Source of the DNA: a virus
Taxonomy: Duplodnaviria; Heunggongvirae; Uroviricota; Caudoviricetes; Schitoviridae
Virus record (IMG/VR): IMGVR_UViG_2228664000_000024
Coordinates: 12,205-76,204 of that record
DNA: 64,000 bases
Reading direction: 5' to 3' (one strand)
Every line of letters begins with the position of its first letter. The first letter of the stretch is position 1. Positions 18,621 to 34,260 of this stretch are shown piece by piece. A program made the translations under genes and the position numbers. The notes beneath the pieces are model-generated. The model saw only the letters and a list, made by a program, of their open reading frames with translations. It was not told the DNA's origin and searched no databases.

Positions 18621-18695
18621 GATGGGATAGCTAAACGGTGAAGCGGTAGACTGTTAATCTATGATAGCTGGGTTCGAGTCCCAGTCCCATCGCCA
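18621..18695 (+). tRNA. tRNA-Asn (anticodon GTT), CCA encoded
   Basis: Acceptor GATGGGA/TCCCATC. Anticodon loop CTGTTAA. T-arm CTGGGTTCGAGTCCCAG. Resembles E. coli tRNA-Asn. Confidence 0.85.
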
Positions 18696-18700
18696 AATTT

Positions 18701-18775
18701 GGTACTATAGTTCATCGGTTAGAATACTCCCCTGTCACGGGAGCGAGCCGGGTTCGATTCCCGGTAGTACCGCCA
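18701..18775 (+). tRNA. tRNA-Asp (anticodon GTC), CCA encoded
   Basis: Acceptor GGTACTA/TAGTACC. D-arm AGTTCATCGGTTAGAATAC. Anticodon loop CTGTCAC. T-loop TTCGATT. Confidence 0.85.
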
Positions 18776-18780
18776 AATAT

Positions 18781-18864
18781 GTGAGTGTGGCTGAACGGTT
18801 GAAAGCACCTGACTGTAAATCAGGCTCGAAAGACGTGGTGGTTCGAATCCATCCACTCACACCA
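18781..18864 (+). tRNA. tRNA-Tyr (anticodon GTA) with long variable arm, CCA encoded
   Basis: Acceptor GTGAGTG/CACTCAC. Anticodon loop CTGTAAA. Long variable arm. T-loop TTCGAAT. Confidence 0.8.
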
Positions 18865-18986
18865 AATTCTGAAGAGTGCCCATGTCTATTGGGGGATCAA
18901 CGGTGAGAAGCCGTGGTGTTCCTGCTGCAAGCCTTAAGTGGACAGAACAGCCAGCCTGGTGACGCAGGCAACTCTTCACCCTCTAT

Positions 18987-19061
18987 TGGGGTATAGCCAA
19001 GCGGTAAGGCAGGAGGCTTTGATCCTTCGATTCTCTGGTTCGAATCCAGATACCCCATCCA
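18987..19061 (+). tRNA. tRNA-Gln (anticodon TTG), U1-A72 pair as in E. coli tRNA-Gln, CCA encoded
   Basis: Starts TGGGGTAT as E. coli tRNA-Gln does. Anticodon loop CTTTGAT. T-arm TCTGGTTCGAATCCAGA. Confidence 0.8.
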
Positions 19062-21276: not shown

Positions 21277-22887
21277 TCACACGAGATAGGAGTTGAGGCC
21301 ACTATTACCCCAACCATCGTCTTGTTGAATATCCCAAATATTACCACTATCACTGTAACTAAGGTTAGCTTCCTCTGAAGGTTTCCATGCCTTCATGTTG
21401 GCGAGCATAGACACAGTATCGATAGCATCATCATGTTTGGATTTGAAGCCAGCAAGAGATGCTTTGGTCAGTTCGTCCATCATCTCCATCAACGGTACGG
21501 AGTGTCTCATTTCTTGAGGGAAGTACATCTTACCCGCCTTGAAGAAAGGAACCACAACGTTGAAACGCTGCATCTTGTTGGTGTTCGGTCGGATCCCCGG
21601 CATGTCAGAGTTATCTTTGGAAGCCAGAGTAAAATAGTTATTACGTGTCATCATCTGTTCCTGAATCCACGGAATGAACCCGCCCTGCTGTCCGGTAACC
21701 TCAATACCTACTGACACTGGCTTGTACTTACTGTTAAGCATGAACAGATCATCCAGGTTTTTACCCATGTCCTGTCGCTTACAGATACCGTCTACCCAGA
21801 ACCAGTCACCGTTATTGTTATAAGCCCAGACCGATATAAACGAGAAGTCGGCTGCTTGCTTATCGCTGGTGGCAAAGTCAGTGGTGATGTAGAAGTTGAA
21901 CATATGCTTGTTGTTAAGCACAAGCTCACGGCGATACCAGCGAATATCACCATCGGCAATAAGACGATCTTCATCGGACATAATTCGAAGCATAAGCTCC
22001 TGGTTAAATGTCGCAATCTTCCCTGCCTTCAGTGCTTTGTCATACTGGTTTTTAACATACTTATAATCGAAACGGTCAGGCCAGCTACCCCGGAAGTCTT
22101 TCTCGTCACAAGGGAAACGCTCACATACTGGGTAGACGTTAACAGCCCATGCCCCGGACTCTACTGCCTTGTACAGAGGATCCCCTGCGTTAAACGGCGT
22201 ACCAGACCAGATCATCATGTTACGTTGAGGGTGCAGAGCGTACTCAACCGCCTTATACACCGTATCCTCAATCGCACTGATAACAGTAGGGGAACGAGCA
22301 TCCTCATCCGAAACCAGGTCATCGAGTACAGCAAGACGTGGACGTTTACCCATCTCTTTCGTACCACGCACCCCGGTCTTCGCACCGTAACCCTTAACGA
22401 CGAACTTGTTACCTTCGACGTTTTGGAACTCCCAACGGATATCAGTAAACTTGGCTACTGGAATATACTTACGCAGGAAGTCAGAGTTCTCGTAACGGAA
22501 CTCTAAGTTTTTACGCATGTTCTTCACGCCGTTATCCACGGAGTCCGATACGTACAAAGCAAGCTCTACAGATCCGAAGCCAGGAATCCCACCATAGGTT
22601 CCAATGTACAAGAACAGGTATTCACCCAGTACCGTCGTTTTAGCAGCACCACGGTGTACCATGTTTGCAATCCTGGTTTCCCCAGTACTTACCTGGTCGA
22701 GCATCTTATAGTGCAGCACTGGGGTTTTGTTCTCTTCACCCTGCCCACCGTTTACCATTTTGATAAACAGCACGAACTCTAACGCAAAGGGTGAAGGCAC
22801 ATAACCTGGATCGTCACTGTAGTCCACGTCAGACAGCCAGGCATCCACTGTCTTAGGGGTTATCATTTCAGCATTGGTGATGTTCAT
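21277..22887 (-). CDS. terL: Terminase large subunit
   Basis: 536 aa. Walker A-like HRGAAKTTVLGE. Acidic LAVLDDLVSDED (Walker B-like). Size and position as N4 gp68. Confidence 0.7.
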   Translation of the reverse strand: MNITNAEMITPKTVDAWLSDVDYSDDPGYVPSPFALEFVLFIKMVNGGQGEENKTPVLHYKMLDQVSTGETRIANMVHRGAAKTTVLGEYLFLYIGTYGGIPGFGSVELALYVSDSVDNGVKNMRKNLEFRYENSDFLRKYIPVAKFTDIRWEFQNVEGNKFVVKGYGAKTGVRGTKEMGKRPRLAVLDDLVSDEDARSPTVISAIEDTVYKAVEYALHPQRNMMIWSGTPFNAGDPLYKAVESGAWAVNVYPVCERFPCDEKDFRGSWPDRFDYKYVKNQYDKALKAGKIATFNQELMLRIMSDEDRLIADGDIRWYRRELVLNNKHMFNFYITTDFATSDKQAADFSFISVWAYNNNGDWFWVDGICKRQDMGKNLDDLFMLNSKYKPVSVGIEVTGQQGGFIPWIQEQMMTRNNYFTLASKDNSDMPGIRPNTNKMQRFNVVVPFFKAGKMYFPQEMRHSVPLMEMMDELTKASLAGFKSKHDDAIDTVSMLANMKAWKPSEEANLSYSDSGNIWDIQQDDGWGNSGLNSYLV

Positions 22888-23606
22888 GCTTTCTCACCCT
22901 CAATCAGGCGTCCACCAGCAATCTGCCCGGCTGTCTGAGCACCAGAGCGTATAGTTTCCTGCTGTGCCTGTACCAGATTACCCACAGCCGCACGCAGAGC
23001 ATCCAACGTACCATCGTCCTTGTGGTTGATATCCAATTCAACCTTCTTGGTTTCTGGTGGCTTAAGGTGACTCATCAGACTGTTGGCTGCATCACTACGT
23101 ACCTTTTCACTGGTAGCAGTCATCATGATCTCAGCCTGTGTCTGCACAGCCTTCCAGAAGAAATCACGCCCCAGGATATGAACAGGAATCATAGCCTGTT
23201 CCATAATCAAGCCTACCAGCTTGTTATTGTGGTAAGCATGAACGTAACTGGAGATGGCCTTAGCAGTCGTACCTTTCTGCATGAAGTAGTTATAACGCTC
23301 AGGGAACGTCTTAATGTAAGCATCCTGGTTGTTCAACCCCATCAGCTTATAGCTGACATAGCGTACTGCATCCAGATAGCTTTCCAGCTTGTACTTACCC
23401 TCACGCATAACATGAGCATACGTAAGCAGGTTCTCACGATACTGCCCATAGAATGCAGGGTCACTGATTGCTTTGTTAATATTCTGAAGGACTGTATCTG
23501 TCACTGACTTACGTACAGTATCTGGCAGTGCAGCCCTTAACTCATCTATCGTTAACTTTGACATAAGGTATAGGCTCCCTATAGGTTTTAGTGGAGTATA
23601 TGCCAA
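22884..23606 (-). CDS. Hypothetical protein upstream of terL (small terminase subunit candidate)
   Basis: 240-aa ORF; ATGA overlap with the terL start. Confidence 0.35.
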   Translation of the reverse strand: MAYTPLKPIGSLYLMSKLTIDELRAALPDTVRKSVTDTVLQNINKAISDPAFYGQYRENLLTYAHVMREGKYKLESYLDAVRYVSYKLMGLNNQDAYIKTFPERYNYFMQKGTTAKAISSYVHAYHNNKLVGLIMEQAMIPVHILGRDFFWKAVQTQAEIMMTATSEKVRSDAANSLMSHLKPPETKKVELDINHKDDGTLDALRAAVGNLVQAQQETIRSGAQTAGQIAGGRLIEGEKA

Positions 23607-23865: not shown

Positions 23866-23879
23866 TTTTTATAATTTTT
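23866..23879 (+). promoter_or_regulatory. TTTTTATAATTTTT box (copy 1) containing a perfect TATAAT
   Basis: Identical 14-mer repeated at 24075-24088. Confidence 0.35.
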
Positions 23880-23892
23880 ATGAGGAAATTTT

Positions 23893-24057
23893 ATGGGTAA
23901 ACGGATAGCGGTAGCTTGGCGTGTACAGTTCACTAACCCTGAATCATCAGGCAGTAACTTTACCAAGATATACGATAACGAAACAGAGAAAGATAAGTGG
24001 GTACACTTACACCAATTAGGAGGTTTTACCGTTAAGGTTACTCCCCTCTATGAATAA
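23893..24057 (+). CDS. Small hypothetical protein (54 aa)
   Basis: RBS GAGGAAA; ORF shorter than the track cutoff. Confidence 0.35.
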   Translation: MGKRIAVAWRVQFTNPESSGSNFTKIYDNETEKDKWVHLHQLGGFTVKVTPLYE

Positions 24058-24074
24058 AAAGTTTGAGGAAAAAC

Positions 24075-24088
24075 TTTTTATAATTTTT
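24075..24088 (+). promoter_or_regulatory. TTTTTATAATTTTT box (copy 2)
   Basis: Identical to 23866-23879. Confidence 0.35.
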
Positions 24089-24258
24089 CTCATTTAGGTA
24101 CGGATGCACTACTTACTACTCTGGCTGTTAGAAATCTGGGACTCCCCCCGGTGTCATCGCTGTAGAAAAAGAATTCTTACTCCTTACACAAATAAACTTA
24201 AGGCCATAGGCCATGCTGTGAGCAATGGTGCTCATCATACATGTATGGAGTAATACAA

Positions 24259-24531
24259 ATGTCTAACGTATCTAACGTAGCTAAGCCTTCTCTCTTCGCA
24301 GCAATCACTGGTGCTGTTGTCTCTACTGTGTCAGTGGTAACTACTACTGCTGAAGCCATGAACTCACTGGCTAATGCTGGTAACCAACTGGCTAAGGTAG
24401 CAGAGAACAAAGCTACTCGTTTCGGTGAACTCATCGAGATGAAAGACCAGATGACTTACAACGCAATGAAGCATGAGCTTGACCAGCAGGTTGCTGCTCT
24501 CGCTGCATCTCTCGATACCAAACGTAAGTAA
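24259..24531 (+). CDS. Hypothetical protein (90 aa), Ala/Thr/Val-rich N-terminus
   Basis: RBS GGAGTAA upstream of ATG 24259. Confidence 0.45.
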   Translation: MSNVSNVAKPSLFAAITGAVVSTVSVVTTTAEAMNSLANAGNQLAKVAENKATRFGELIEMKDQMTYNAMKHELDQQVAALAASLDTKRK

Positions 24532-24625
24532 GGGCTAAGCCAACATGAACTACATCATCAAGTTTGAAATTGCTGTACGAGTGTTGGCTTATCGCATTCG
24601 TCACTGGTACTGGAAGTAATCCATA

Positions 24626-24655
24626 GCTCACCTTCGGGTGAGCTTATTCTTTTTA
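24626..24655 (+). terminator. Intrinsic terminator AGCTCACC-ttcg-GGTGAGCT plus U-tract
   Basis: UUCG tetraloop, 8-bp stem, TATTCTTTTT. Confidence 0.8.
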
Positions 24656-25139
24656 CACAAGTACACAACTACACAATCAACCTATGACAGTAAGGTGCGC
24701 TAAGCAGGTTCAAAACTTATGGCAATTTACTCGCGCTAGGTATGCCACCTGGAATTCATATACAGATATTCACTTATCGATTTTACTCATAACACTTATC
24801 GAAAAAATGAGTTAGTCAAAAGGGTTGACAGCAAGGTACAGTAAATACATAGACACTTATTACTTAACTTACTACTTCAATCTAACTTAGCTTTGTTTAC
24901 CTCTATCTTATCAACTACTATCTCTATACCTATACTTACCCTATACACTATCTCTATGTATACCTTACATATACCTATAACCTTATAAACACTATGTATA
25001 TAAGTATGGGTATCCTATCTATAACTAGTGAGTACATCGTAGGTACGTAGTACCGTAGATGTACGAACGGTAGATAGTTATATCTATGTCCATAGGACAT
25101 TAAGTGGAGTAATACACTTAACCAATCGGAGATATAACT
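24656..25139. repeat. About 480-bp non-coding AT-rich region with short direct repeats (ACTATCTCTAT x2; CGTAG iterons x3-4)
   Basis: No ORF of 60 aa or more. Pyrimidine-rich plus strand. Repeated ctat/atac/tacc units. CGTAG repeated at 8-14 bp spacing around 25036-25075. Confidence 0.5.
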
Positions 25140-25358
25140 ATGCAAACTAACACTACTCTGTTCTACGTTGATAGCCGTCCTCAATACGGTGAGTTCATTC
25201 AGGCTCAGTATTCACACTGGGAACTATGGTTCTCAGAAGACCCTAACAAGCCAGTCATGCCTTTGGTCATTGACCATGAGTTTCCTGTTAAGCCTACTAA
25301 GCGTCAGGTGCGTAAGCTACGTCGTGCATTCCGTAAAGAAGCCAAACAATACCTGTAA
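25140..25358 (+). CDS. Small basic-tailed protein (72 aa), paralog of 25735-25995
   Basis: RBS GGAGA; C-terminus KPTKRQVRKLRRAFRKE. Confidence 0.5.
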   Translation: MQTNTTLFYVDSRPQYGEFIQAQYSHWELWFSEDPNKPVMPLVIDHEFPVKPTKRQVRKLRRAFRKEAKQYL

Positions 25359-25403
25359 TCACATAGGCCACTGTTGTGGCCTTTAACTTATGTGGAGTAA
25401 GCC

Positions 25404-27408: not shown

Positions 27409-27425
27409 AATGCACTCCGTGCATT
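27409..27425 (+). promoter_or_regulatory. Conserved hairpin, class GGA (AATGCAC-tcc-GTGCATT; GGA loop on the template strand); candidate vRNAP-type hairpin promoter
   Basis: 7-bp stem, 3-nt loop. Shares GCACTCCGTGCRTTG(N2-3)TGAGTT with the copy at 34016. Lies between a terminator and the next gene. Confidence 0.45.
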
Positions 27426-30735: not shown

Positions 30736-31022
30736 TGGGTGACGAATACAACAGTGAGTATCCACAGATACCACCTACGCATTTACGCTGCAAAGTAGAT
30801 AAATGTGTAGCCCTCAAACTCGATCCACGATTCGACAAAATCGTTCGTACCAAGATGCTGTTAGGCATCACTAAAAGTATCAAATTACGGGGCCATATCC
30901 CGTATAGAACTGCATCAATCAAACCAGAACGTATTACATCAGAGCTTGAATTCTCTGGCTTCAAGGCCAGTGCAGAATACAGAGGCTCTGGTACATGGGT
31001 GATTAACGTAAGGAGAAAGTAA
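30735..31022 (+). CDS. Hypothetical protein (95 aa)
   Basis: TAATG overlap on both sides. Confidence 0.45.
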   Translation: MGDEYNSEYPQIPPTHLRCKVDKCVALKLDPRFDKIVRTKMLLGITKSIKLRGHIPYRTASIKPERITSELEFSGFKASAEYRGSGTWVINVRRK

Positions 31023-32002
31023 TGCACCATTGGCTCGCTAAGGAAGAATTGCAACTCATCAATGAACGTCAGTTCAACCGTAAGCATATCGATGGCTATA
31101 TCCGTGCAGAACTCTTCGAAGGCCAGGAGAACCTCTGGCCTGAAGTAGCACAGGGCGTAGAGCTATTGAATCAATGGATGGATCAGCAGTTCTATGACAG
31201 CAAAGCTGTTCGTATCAGTCACTTAAGACAACTGGACTTAGAGAAGCTCGTTGTCGAGATATTCGTAGGTGTGTGCTACGTACAGGAGGAAACACCACTG
31301 GTCAACGTCATTGGTCAACTGGCTTCACGTATCGGCTTTGACGATAAGCGTGACAGCATTCAGACCATTGCCGAAGTGCTGGCTGTGCTGTGTGAAACTG
31401 ATGTTTATGACATCAGCAAACCACACCCTAAAGCCAGTCTGTATATCAAATCGAACATCACCTTTGATGAGAGATTAAGCAATTTCATTGCATACTCATG
31501 CTATTTACCGCCGCTGGTTTGTGAACCTCGTGAACTGGTAAATAACCGTTCAACCGCTTATTACACGCACGAATCAGATAGCCTGATTCTGGGTGGAGGA
31601 TTTAACCATCATGACGGAAACATCTGCCTTGATGTACTTAATTCACGCAATCGTGTTCCTCTTTCCCTGGACGTGCAATTCCTTTGCACAGTGGAAGAAG
31701 AACCAACTCACGATCTCGATGTTATTGACTCTGACGAGGATCTCAGTGACTGGCAAATAGCCGATATGGTACGCAAACAGAAGCAAAACTGGGCGCGTTA
31801 CAAAGAGCAGTCGTACTACTTCTACAGCCTGATGGTGAACCAGGGTAATAGGTTCTACATCAGCAACAAGGTAGACAAACGCGGGCGCATGTACGCCTGT
31901 GGCTACCACATCACCCCACAGGGAACCAGCTTCAAGAAAGCGATGATTAACTTTGCCGATCAAGAGCAAGTAACAGGTGTCCCTGCACAATTCAGAAAAT
32001 GA
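31022..32002 (+). CDS. Phage RNA polymerase II, N-terminal-type subunit (T7-like RNAP promoter-binding/DxxGR region)
   Basis: DKRGRMYACGYHITPQGT matches T7 RNAP DWRGRVYA...NPQGN. Followed by the palm-domain subunit. Confidence 0.7.
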   Translation: MHHWLAKEELQLINERQFNRKHIDGYIRAELFEGQENLWPEVAQGVELLNQWMDQQFYDSKAVRISHLRQLDLEKLVVEIFVGVCYVQEETPLVNVIGQLASRIGFDDKRDSIQTIAEVLAVLCETDVYDISKPHPKASLYIKSNITFDERLSNFIAYSCYLPPLVCEPRELVNNRSTAYYTHESDSLILGGGFNHHDGNICLDVLNSRNRVPLSLDVQFLCTVEEEPTHDLDVIDSDEDLSDWQIADMVRKQKQNWARYKEQSYYFYSLMVNQGNRFYISNKVDKRGRMYACGYHITPQGTSFKKAMINFADQEQVTGVPAQFRK

Positions 32003-32014
32003 GAGGAATAACTT

Positions 32015-33289
32015 ATGCAACATACTATCAATTTCGGTACTGGCTTCCAGAGATTCTCCGGCTGGGAATATCTCTGCATCGACGTAGCCAACCATTATGG
32101 GCTGGATAAAGAACTATTCAATACCCGCATTCAGTGGGTGTATGACCACATCGATAACCTGGAAACATTGGCAGATGATGCCGATGAACCAGTGCTGTTC
32201 AAGAAAGCTGTTATGACCCTTCGCCGTGCTCAGCACGGTGAGGCTGTAGGCCATGTAGTTCACTTCGATGCCTGCTGCTCTGGTATCCAGATTATGTCTG
32301 CACTTACTGGCTGTGAAGCTGGTGCATACAACACTGGTATGGTTGACCCGGATCAGCGTATGGATGCGTACAGCAACACCACTGGCGAGATGAACAAGAT
32401 TCTGCAAACCAAAGGGTTAGCAAGTATCACTGTTCCTCGTGGTGATGTTAAACAAGCCGTAATGACTTCAGGCTATGGCTCCAAAGCTGTACCTAAGAAG
32501 GTATTCGGTGAAGGTGAGATGCTGGACGTGTTCTACGATGCAGCTATGACCATCGCTCCGGGCGCATTTAAGCTCATGGATGAACTTCTGGAATCATGGC
32601 GTCCATTTGCCTTAGAACACCGTCTGGTGGCTCCTGATGGCTTCACAGCCGTCATTAAGGTAATGGAAACCAAGGAAACCAGAATTGAAGTGGATGAACT
32701 CGACCATGCAACGTTTACGCTGCAATACCGTGTGAACGAAGGTACAGAGCGTGGACGTGCTAACGTAGCGAATACCATTCACTTCTGTGATGCGTATCTC
32801 CTGCGTGGCATTGAGCGTCGTTGCAACTACGATCCAGTGGTTGTAAGCAATGCTCAGGAAGTCCTGCGTATGGCTGCTCTGGGCTATTCCTGCGGTAATA
32901 CGCAGATGGCTTGCACTGACGAACTCAGTGAACTACTGCCACTGTGCATTCGCTCTCACATCGCTGATGTGGCGCTTCTGCCATTGCTGCGTTGGGATAA
33001 CGTCATGTGTCTGCCTAAGTGGATGGTGCATAAGCTGCTGTCTATCGTTAACGATATGCTGTCTTACAAGCCATTCCCTATTCTGACTGTCCATGATGCC
33101 TTCGGTGCTCATGCCAATAACTGTGACCTCACTCGTTACTGGTACAAAGAGATCATGGCCGATATGGCTGATTCCAACCTGCTGGAAATGCTGATGTGCC
33201 AGCTTTACCAAATCACTGACGGTAAGTATGAAAAGCTCAGCCCAAATCTGGGAGATAAAATCAGGAACTCAAACTATGCGCTTTCTTAA
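32015..33289 (+). CDS. Phage RNA polymerase II, catalytic (palm) subunit, T7-like
   Basis: Motif A HFDACCSGIQIMSAL (T7 DGSCSGIQHFSAM). Motif B KQAVMTSGYGS. Motif C HDAFGAH (T7 HDSFGTH). Confidence 0.75.
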   Translation: MQHTINFGTGFQRFSGWEYLCIDVANHYGLDKELFNTRIQWVYDHIDNLETLADDADEPVLFKKAVMTLRRAQHGEAVGHVVHFDACCSGIQIMSALTGCEAGAYNTGMVDPDQRMDAYSNTTGEMNKILQTKGLASITVPRGDVKQAVMTSGYGSKAVPKKVFGEGEMLDVFYDAAMTIAPGAFKLMDELLESWRPFALEHRLVAPDGFTAVIKVMETKETRIEVDELDHATFTLQYRVNEGTERGRANVANTIHFCDAYLLRGIERRCNYDPVVVSNAQEVLRMAALGYSCGNTQMACTDELSELLPLCIRSHIADVALLPLLRWDNVMCLPKWMVHKLLSIVNDMLSYKPFPILTVHDAFGAHANNCDLTRYWYKEIMADMADSNLLEMLMCQLYQITDGKYEKLSPNLGDKIRNSNYALS

Positions 33290-34016: not shown

Positions 34017-34030
34017 CGCACTCCGTGCGT
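34016..34030 (+). promoter_or_regulatory. Conserved hairpin, class GGA (ACGCAC-tcc-GTGCGT)
   Basis: 6-bp stem, 3-nt loop. Same flanking consensus as 27409. Followed by a second hairpin GACGC-tttc-GCGTC (34041-34054) and a terminator. Confidence 0.45.
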
Positions 34031-34083
34031 TGAGTGAGTTGACGCTTTCGCGTCTGTATAACTTAATTTTCTCATTTCTGAAG

Positions 34084-34116
34084 GGCTATCCTATTTATTG
34101 GGATAGCCTATTTTTT
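34084..34116 (+). terminator. Intrinsic terminator GGCTATCC-(9 nt)-GGATAGCC plus TTTTTT
   Basis: 8-bp stem plus U-tract; likely end of the early transcription unit. Confidence 0.7.
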
Positions 34117-34260
34117 ATACTTCAGAGACTTCTAAGACAGTCATGTACATAGTTCTAGAACTTCTATAGAAGTTTTATACCTATATGCTAGACAGTCAAA
34201 AATCGACACTTTTGACTTTACCCTACCTAAACCCTAAATCCACTTATCTATAGGCTAAAA

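Follow-up and report, generated by a model that had tools for sequence, protein, structure and literature searches.

The non-coding stretch at positions 24656-25139 of the 64-kb window (i.e., the whole 64,000-nucleotide stretch of DNA that was analyzed) is probably the regulatory region at the left genome end of an N4-like phage, in which the inner edge of a direct terminal repeat (DTR) is followed by a G-poor, AT-rich spacer and then by two conserved hairpins of the early-promoter type. The downstream hairpin (hairpin 2) is most likely, on the analogy of phage N4, the virion RNA polymerase (vRNAP) promoter for the first non-redundant early operon. We describe here the sequence anatomy of this region, its conservation and covariation, the membership of hairpin 2 in a family of similar hairpins, and the positional homology to the repeat and promoters annotated in related phages. 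A sequence-only reading of the stretch had proposed that iterons within it mark a replication origin, a packaging site or a cluster of early promoters and operators. The early-promoter option was supported, with two conserved and covarying N4-type hairpins present at the same spot that is annotated as a promoter in related phages. A left-end control region of this kind is already partly annotated in CB1-like genomes; the sole parts not yet explained are the upstream hairpin (hairpin 1), which is top-strand-specific and fully covarying, and the extreme G-poor tract.

By sequence similarity, the window was assigned to an N4-like, Cbunavirus-like phage of the Schitoviridae. In BLASTN searches against phage records, it matched only N4-like Schitoviridae, with Enterobacter phage vB_Ecl_SABI (SABI) as the closest relative (89-92%), and with the Cbunavirus phages CB1, CB3, CB4, Possum, Horatius, Nepra, phiA41, Kc283 and EK8 at approximately 70-74%. 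Only a short segment of the window was matched by the Klebsiella Efbeekayviruses. The anatomy of the region was derived from an eight-phage alignment, together with a ten-phage conservation profile.

Two conserved hairpins precede the predicted first non-redundant early gene

Hairpin 2 precedes the ATG at 25140 by 47 nucleotides (nt), lies approximately 970 nt inside the predicted left end, and is annotated as a promoter in the GenBank records of both CB4 and CB1. Its stem covaries: the CB1 clade has AGTGC-ATA-GCACT, and SABI and contig L021 have TACGC-ATA-GCGTA, with a pair identity of 0.74 in the ten-phage profile. In the Klebsiella phage P184, the hairpin 2 site before the same leader is occupied by ATTACCC-ACA-GGGTAAT, which gives a template loop of TGT with a central purine. 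Downstream of hairpin 2, the window and the phages of the CB1 clade have a G at +11 and another at +13, the situation in SABI being less clear (A at +11). By analogy with N4, the predicted transcription start is the G at approximately 25104 (+11) or that at 25106 (+13).

Hairpins of the C-ATA-G type with a stem of at least 4 bp were found at five sites in the window (24202, 25087, 26327, 29789 and 30154). All five are on the plus strand, intergenic, upstream of early genes and within 6 kb of the predicted left end, and none was found in the opposite orientation. Members of this family are present at equivalent sites in every relative. The hairpin at 24202, which lies inside the DTR, is kept in all Cbunavirus-like relatives (mean pair identity 0.94), and in CB1 the same GGCC-ATA-GGCC hairpin is listed as a putative hairpin promoter in Table S4 (PMC6027278).

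Hairpin 1, which occurs once in the window, has an outer stem of 7 bp and an inner stem of 5 bp. A 3x3 internal loop (GTA/GTA) separates the two stems, and the apical loop is GTA. The repeats that had been taken for iterons were confirmed at their positions, i.e., CGTAG at 25038, 25046 and 25054, and CGGTAG at 25068. The three CGTAG copies, however, are the arms and loops of this one hairpin and, because its stems covary, not repeated protein sites. Three versions of the outer stem were found initially (GTACAT/ATGTAC, GTAACA/TGTTAC and GTATAC/GTATAC), and two further variants were obtained from contigs encoding the identical 96-amino-acid (aa) protein. Of these, L021 has swapped inner arms (GTACC-GAA-GGTAC), and L022 reads GTACACC-GTA-GC-GTAA-GC-GTA-GGTGTAC. 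Across the five variants, the 12 pairs were 100% paired (103 cells), with compensatory changes in 6 pairs, and both shuffles and slid registers scored far below this level. Scored jointly, hairpins 1 and 2 showed 98% of cells paired and 7 compensatory pairs, a score reached by 0 of 500 shuffles. In all five variants the closing pairs were C:G, the internal loop remained 3x3 GTA/GTA, and the apical loop of the top strand kept its G..A pattern (GTA, GAA or GTAA).

The folding energy of hairpin 1 was -8.0 kcal/mol for the top strand and -6.9 kcal/mol for the bottom strand, and an advantage of approximately 1 kcal/mol for the top strand persists when special loop bonuses are left out. The pair identity of hairpin 1 in the ten-phage profile was 0.90. 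Symmetric co-evolution of a dimer-binding site could mimic the covariation of its stems, but the conserved asymmetric loops point to a folded single strand. The exact core of hairpin 1 gave no matches in genome contigs and one in a metagenome scan, and a looser pattern for its flanks returned, from viral contigs beyond the known relatives, chance matches only. Hairpin 1 may be either a tandem upstream promoter or an accessory cruciform that helps extrusion.

The leader behind hairpin 2 is conserved up to the Shine-Dalgarno sequence, and the first gene behind it is variable, being different in almost every relative. The stem of the leader is retained by different sequences in phiA41 and SABI, the individual folds being not significant. 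Comparison of these sequences suggests that promoter-leader modules may serve as recombination anchors for early-gene shuffling. C-ATA-G hairpins (family A) with conserved flanks were also seen to recur between small early genes. As a single strand, the segment 25028-25145 folds at -23.2 kcal/mol (z = -6.4), in part because of a lineage-specific 12-bp inverted repeat. The latter was found only in the window, SABI and contig L016, and its 5' arm is missing in the CB1 clade.

A second family of hairpins, with N4-like loops, was observed on the plus strand at 27411-27423 (TGCAC-TCC-GTGCA) and 34017-34029 (CGCAC-TCC-GTGCG). Each of these C-TCC-G hairpins stands behind a terminator T-run and ahead of ...ATGAGTT, and relatives keep GGCC-TCC-GGCC after a CCCCTTCGGGG terminator.

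The stretch straddles the inner edge of a predicted terminal repeat

In the Pectobacterium phages CB1 and CB4, DTRs of 647 bp (1-647) and 1-648, respectively, were sized from doubled read depth (PMC6027278). The left end of CB1 carries a small membrane-protein gene within the DTR, followed by "CB1_promoter_1" at 829-883, just before CB1_02 (PMC6027278). The stretch under study aligns to approximately 420-915 of CB1, i.e., to the end of the read-depth DTR plus "CB1_promoter_1". The CB1 genome start, TACTACTCTGGCTG, corresponds to window position 24114; the left flank of the right-end copy in CB1 (...ACGGATGCTCAACT) matches ...ACGGATGCACTACT in the window; and the CB1 repeat end, ...CATAACA/CTACTACC (the slash marking the junction), aligns to approximately 24868/24869. 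Since the start and end of the CB1 repeat align at these points, the predicted repeat spans approximately 24114-24869. By this homology, the physical left end of the genome would lie near 24114 and the inner edge of the DTR near 24869. The stretch thus straddles the predicted inner boundary, with approximately 215 bp inside the repeat and 270 bp in unique sequence, and the window contains one collapsed copy of the DTR.

Two motifs mark the predicted boundaries. The 10-mer ACTTACTACT has plus-strand copies only at 24111-24120 and 24867-24876, i.e., at both of them, and the left-junction motif ACT/TACTAC[TC]C?TGGCT is kept in 13 of 13 relatives from two genera. The right-side TACTAC motif is absent in Horatius and contig L013, and is of low complexity for the local composition. 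These data are only suggestive of a TACTAC-type motif as a common cut site at both boundaries. Two copies of TTTTTATAATTTTT were also noted, one at 23866-23879, upstream of a small plus-strand open reading frame (ORF; 23893-24057), and one at 24075-24088, approximately 26 nt to the left of the predicted DTR start. AT-rich motifs resembling it precede the junction in CB1, Horatius and P184, and TTTTTATAATTTTT may be a middle-promoter-like or junction element.

Conserved non-coding sequences lie within the DTR. The TACACAA triplet next to the terminator was overlooked in the sequence-only reading and is better conserved than the repeats quoted there; its TACACA units are invariant in 12 phages, including Klebsiella Efbeekayviruses. 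The block at 24685..24745 had a pair identity of 0.88 in the ten-phage profile, compared with 0.57 for the adjacent protein gene, and its conservation also reaches Efbeekayvirus. A small RNA or structured element at 24646-24760 was considered and rejected, given a folding energy of -3 kcal/mol, no conserved fold, no covariation and no Rfam match. The block probably acts through sequence recognition, since it has neither a conserved fold nor an Rfam match, and is possibly a candidate packaging or other protein-binding site. As for the coding content of the DTR, the 96-aa membrane protein was searched for similarity to N4 gp1, and none was detected. A 24-aa ORF (MNYIIKFEIAVRVLAYRIRHWYWK) was seen at 24546-24620, where approximately 75 nt are inserted ahead of the terminator and behind the membrane-protein gene. 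Neither SABI nor L022 has this ORF, and in L021 the same slot holds a different, 38-aa gene call.

The tract upstream of the hairpins is a compositional extreme of the window

The stretch had been described as ORF-free and AT-rich, and both descriptions hold. No plus-strand ORF of at least 60 aa is present from the terminator to the ATG at 25140. A 69-aa, TTG-initiated ORF lies on the minus strand (24975..25184); in relatives it is broken by 2-, 6- and 12-nt indels, so that it is not coding. The base counts of 24656-25139 are A167, T150, C99 and G68, and the 200 nt from 24842 are the AT maximum of the 64 kb (71%, compared with a mean of 53.5%). At 24896-24995 there is 1 G in 100 nt, the lowest value of the 64 kb, for which the mean is 23% (standard deviation 4%) and the next-lowest interval 8%. 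The reported strand asymmetry was confirmed as G depletion, with a local GC skew of -0.44, but not as pyrimidine richness, which is 51% overall and reaches 63% only in 24845-25026.

The short repeats of the tract were likewise confirmed. ACTATCTCTAT is present at 24917 and 24947, its sole two copies in the 64 kb, and 14 copies of CTAT were counted, compared with approximately 1.6 expected from density. Tandem Repeats Finder did detect arrays here, but with weak scores (33-39). A similar tract is present in Klebsiella phage P184, and in 11 of 11 relatives the tract keeps 6-12% G and the heptamers TATACCT and ACTATCT. Its exact sequence is indel-rich, with a pair identity of 0.33-0.41 in the ten-phage profile, and its core, TATACCTATACCTAYCCTATA, is nearly invariant. 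The tract is likely the part of the window that is easiest to melt, because it is the most AT-rich. AT-rich flanks favour cruciform extrusion, and by analogy the tract may be a local unwinding element.

Independent insertions were observed in the tracts of CB4 (L008), EK8 (L007) and L016 (ERZ1026872 NODE-151), the last being a metagenome contig that terminates within the tract. Within these insertions, CGTAG, ACGAA and GC-GNA-GC motifs were noted that look like fragments of hairpin 1 and of its flanking sequence.

Table 1. Positions, in window coordinates, of the elements of the left-end region and of the flanking genes
Feature	Position	Strand	Description
Large terminase	21277-22887	minus	Flanking gene fitting the N4-like assignment
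gp69-like gene	22884-23606	minus	Flanking gene fitting the N4-like assignment
Predicted DTR	24114..24869	plus	~756 bp; homology to the CB1/CB4 read-depth DTRs
GGCC-ATA-GGCC hairpin	24202..24212	plus	~88 nt from predicted left end, in DTR; candidate first early promoter, for the 96-aa membrane-protein gene
96-aa membrane-protein gene	24241-24531	plus	Downstream of the 24202 hairpin, inside DTR
Intrinsic terminator	24625..24654 (stem 24625-24644 + T-run)	plus	8-bp stem with 5 GC pairs, then TATTCTTTTT; closes the DTR-internal transcription unit
TACACAA x3	24654..24676	plus	8-bp spacing, iteron-like; Tandem Repeats Finder TACACAAC x2.9
Invariant non-coding block	24685..24745	plus	GACAGTAAGGTGCGCTA...CAAAACTT...TTTACTCGCGCTAGGTATG; inside DTR; block start also given as GACAGTAAGGYGCGCTA
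TTGACA	24825..24830	plus	Invariant in all relatives; ~40 nt inside the predicted DTR right boundary
ACTTA/TACTAC repeats	24855..24877	plus	Predicted DTR right boundary, predicted right physical end of packaged DNA
G-poor, AT-rich tract	24881..25026	plus	Short units (TATACCT, ACTATCTCTAT, CCTATAC); most AT-rich stretch of the window
Hairpin 1	25032..25064	plus	GTACATC-GTA-GGTAC-GTA-GTACC-GTA-GATGTAC (33 nt); 12 pairs, 6 with compensatory changes
Linker	25065..25073	plus	CGA(A/C)CGGTA; conserved; holds the fourth repeat, CGGTAG
12-bp perfect inverted repeat	25074..25141	plus	ATAGTTATATCT / AGATATAACTAT; brackets hairpin 2 and the ribosome-binding site
Hairpin 2	25086..25100	plus	ATGTCC-ATA-GGACAT; 6-bp stem, ATA loop; predicted vRNAP early promoter
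Leader	25101..25139	plus	5' stem-loop UAAGUG...CACUUA (25101-25120), Shine-Dalgarno GGAG (25128-25131), ATG 25140
N4-like RNA polymerase II, two subunits	31022-33289	plus	Flanking genes fitting the N4-like assignment

Proposed order of events at the left end

In N4, the genome's left end enters the cell first, gyrase supercoils the DNA, the hairpins extrude, host single-stranded DNA-binding protein stabilizes the template-strand hairpin and the virion polymerase starts; early transcription by this polymerase then draws in further DNA. For the present phage, the termini, the transcription starts, the acting polymerase and any role of the tract are inferred. On the N4 model, its left end would enter the cell and negative supercoiling driven by gyrase would extrude the hairpins, which lie approximately 920-985 nt from the predicted end, with the G-poor tract directly upstream of them serving as the local unwinding element. 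The injected vRNAP would bind hairpin 2 as folded by the template strand, with a 5'-TAT-3' loop closed by a C:G pair, and initiate at a G approximately 11 nt downstream of it (~25104). A leader transcript with a 5' stem-loop would result, leading to the expression of the first non-redundant and highly variable early genes. Packaged DNA would terminate at the TACTAC-type repeats.

The assignment gives predicted positions for the physical end and the earliest promoters in the genome of an N4-like phage that lacks annotation, which helps to set its orientation and gene annotation right, and it shows that an apparent cluster of iterons is really a conserved DNA hairpin. The comparison also sharpens an ambiguity in the published Cbunavirus annotations, namely which of the two hairpins is the promoter, and the loop sequences suggest that Cbunavirus-like phages may use a T-R-T/Y template loop in place of the G-R-A loop of N4. 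Hairpin 1 and the G-poor tract are candidate cis elements that may act in the activation of promoters by supercoiling, in the priming of replication or in the processing of the terminal repeat. If the expected promoter function alone holds, the finding is an ordinary one.

Evidence against this assignment and competing explanations

Several observations weigh against the left-end promoter assignment. The template loops are TAT in hairpin 2 and TAC in hairpin 1, and not G-R-A as in N4, with only the central purine retained. By BLASTP, the CB1 vRNAP gave no alignment with the polymerase domain of the N4 mini-vRNAP and, because this similarity is lacking, the N4 recognition rules are not transferable. 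The number of C-ATA-G hairpins is little above chance (5, compared with a shuffle mean of 2.2 for both orientations and a maximum of 7); as the count alone is modest, the family argument rests on clustering and orientation. The C-TCC-G family could be the true class of virion-polymerase promoters, or could consist of middle promoters for RNA polymerase II. For CB1 itself, the promoters and the DTR come from prediction or from read depth, and Horatius and Possum are annotated with a 636-bp repeat that is shifted by approximately 45-55 nt and was placed by read depth and similarity. Finally, the hairpin given as the promoter in Table S4 of the CB1 paper is hairpin 1 rather than hairpin 2 (PMC6027278).

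A role in packaging or terminal-repeat processing, in which the three TACACAA units, GACAGTAAGG..., TTGACA and the tract would, like the short-repeat arrays that flank the terminal repeat of T7, be elements of terminase recognition or spacing and of repeat duplication at concatemer junctions, is a possibility that we entertain with low confidence, and one that can coexist with promoter function. It would account for blocks that are better conserved than the neighbouring gene, reach another genus, carry no structure signal and fall in the final ~215 bp before the predicted right terminus. The 10-mer ACTTACTACT is placed precisely at both predicted boundaries, the left-junction motif is universal in the relatives, and relatives and other Schitoviridae are reported to have fixed short DTRs of the T7 type rather than headful packaging. 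Against this, the boundaries come from homology, and the right-side TACTAC motif is low-complexity and missing in Horatius and L013. The packaging site or physical terminus of the sequence-only reading is supported by homology only, the CB1/CB4 read-depth annotation putting the inner edge of the DTR near 24869. We consider it unlikely that the tract is instead a functionless low-complexity spacer whose length is driven by slippage, with selection acting only on the hairpins and the DTR blocks. Such a spacer would fit the indel-rich sequence, the independent insertions in CB4, EK8 and L016 and the weak tandem-repeat scores; it does not fit a G depletion retained in 11 of 11 relatives and also in Efbeekayvirus, a nearly invariant core (TATACCTATACCTAYCCTATA), or a tract that is the compositional extreme of 64 kb.

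The iteron-type origin put forward in the sequence-only reading was not supported. Judged against the usual pattern for such origins, i.e., at least 3 direct repeats of approximately 17-22 bp at regular spacing with an initiator encoded adjacently, the repeats here are 5-11 bp long, in 2-3 copies and irregularly spaced, the CTAT-type units are indel-rich, and the neighbouring genes encode a small membrane protein and small unknowns but no initiator. An AT-rich unwinding element is present (71% AT, the window maximum), a feature that is not specific to origins. The GC-skew analysis recommended for this question was uninformative, as the cumulative minimum at 24-26 kb is shallow and results from the flip in gene orientation together with the G-poor tract. 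A literature search for a replication origin of N4 or the Schitoviridae found nothing usable. A replication origin of another kind, in which the AT-rich tract unwinds and the folded top strand of hairpin 1 is recognized by vRNAP or primase for leftward priming toward the genome end, is distinctly improbable in our estimate. It draws on the position of the most AT-rich stretch of the window beside conserved hairpins, and on the top-strand specificity of the hairpin 1 constants in all five variants (apical GTA/GAA/GTAA, internal GTA/GTA). Since the template strand of N4 carries the stable G-R-A loop, an N4-type reading of hairpin 1 would make the top strand the template and direct synthesis leftward. 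N4 DNA replication genetically requires vRNAP, and the primary origin of T7 consists of tandem phage promoters and an AT-rich stretch. True iterons, an adjacent initiator gene and DnaA/IHF-type sites are absent from the region, however, the weak skew minimum is otherwise explained, and the base at the N4-type leftward +1 varies (T, C or A) and lies inside a covarying stem. In addition, the Efbeekayvirus relatives have the tract and hairpin 2 but no hairpin 1. We attach a similarly small probability to the narrower idea that hairpin 1 is neither an iteron set nor a rightward promoter but a strand-specific folded-DNA signal on the top strand, with two GTA triplets left unpaired in every variant. 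Together with the neighbouring DNA, which is the easiest to melt, it could then be a site at which vRNAP or the phage primase primes leftward. If this were true, hairpin 1 would represent the type of replication origin that has long gone unmapped in N4-like phages, or else would serve in copying the terminal repeat at the left end.

A cluster of host sigma-70 early promoters with repressor operators, the remaining proposal, is highly improbable. Scanning for -35/-10 hexamers with 16-18 nt spacing identified 3 promoter-like sites, fewer than the 5.0 +/- 2.4 found in shuffles. TTGACA at 24825 is invariant and one 9/12 promoter-like match was found at 24908-24936, but in no relative is there an acceptable -10 hexamer 16-18 nt past TTGACA. 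Moreover, no repressor gene is present, and N4-like phages transcribe their early genes without the host polymerase.

Neighbouring genes and other regions of the window

Besides the flanking genes of Table 1, four tRNA genes (Asn-GTT, Asp-GTC, Tyr-GTA and Gln-TTG) are clustered on the plus strand at 18621-19061, inside the minus-strand late region. In an Rfam scan at gathering scores, only the tRNAs at 18.6-19.1 kb matched, and an E-value scan of 24000-25400 gave a single chance-level match and nothing relevant. Among the intergenic regions of the window, 34086-34260, just past the RNA polymerase II genes, ranks second for low G and high AT content. A terminator (34083-34116), the perfect 16-bp palindrome AACTTCTATAGAAGTT at 34159-34174 and two GACAGTCA motifs are found there, and the region is likely an early/middle boundary control region. 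Among the database records, that of Enterobacter phage SonariX (PQ898399.1, 248,734 bp) carries the N4-like left-end sequence of the 76-kb phage SABI with identical match statistics; this record may be chimeric or concatenated.

Comparison with known systems

In N4 early promoters, a 5-7 bp stem closed by a C:G pair carries a 3-nt loop that reads 5'-G-R-A-3' on the template strand; a G is found at -8, and transcription starts 11 nt from the loop centre. The hairpins described here resemble them in their 5-6 bp stem, 3-nt loop, C:G closing pair, central template purine and G at +11/+13. The resemblance extends to position: N4 P1 (GTTGC-TTC-GCAAC) lies at 91-103 of N4 and the DTR-internal hairpin approximately 88 nt from the predicted end, and in both phages the next hairpin is just beyond the first small gene and its terminator. 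At -8, hairpin 2 of the window has a C in place of the G of N4, whereas GC-ATA-GC family members have the G. The intergenic region is approximately 500 bp here, compared with approximately 105 bp in N4, and N4 has nothing that corresponds to the G-poor tract, to hairpin 1 or to the conserved blocks of the DTR. Transfer of the N4 contact residues K114, R119, W129, D901 and R904 to the Cbunavirus polymerase was dropped, there being no alignment and no vRNAP gene in the window.

The left end of T7 consists of a terminal repeat, a flanking array of short imperfect repeats and then the promoters for the first-entering genes. The present region follows the same order of repeat, short-repeat array and promoters; in T7, however, the promoters are double-stranded sigma-70 sites, and there is no sequence relationship.

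In the Pseudomonas phage LUZ7, ONT-cappable-seq showed that early transcripts start with a G, 13-14 nt from the hairpin centre (PMC9163698). The LUZ7 hairpins have 3-nt loops on stems of 4 bp or more; its two strongest early promoters stand in tandem, 33 nt apart, and hairpin middle promoters are also present (PMC9163698). Tandem hairpins are likewise found in CB1 (33 nt apart) and in the window (45 nt). LUZ7 differs in belonging to another genus, with no sequence similarity in the region, and in that its starts were measured, whereas the starts given here are predicted.

The phages CB1, CB3 and CB4 (PMC6027278) offer the closest comparison, as their left ends are directly homologous to that of the window, with the same order of elements and an identical 21-nt core of hairpin 1. 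Overall identity is ~71%, with compensatory differences in the outer stem of hairpin 1 and in the stem of hairpin 2; in the window, 12 additional nt separate the two hairpins, and the first gene is another one. Within this group the annotations disagree, the published table pointing to hairpin 1 and the CB4 GenBank record to hairpin 2.

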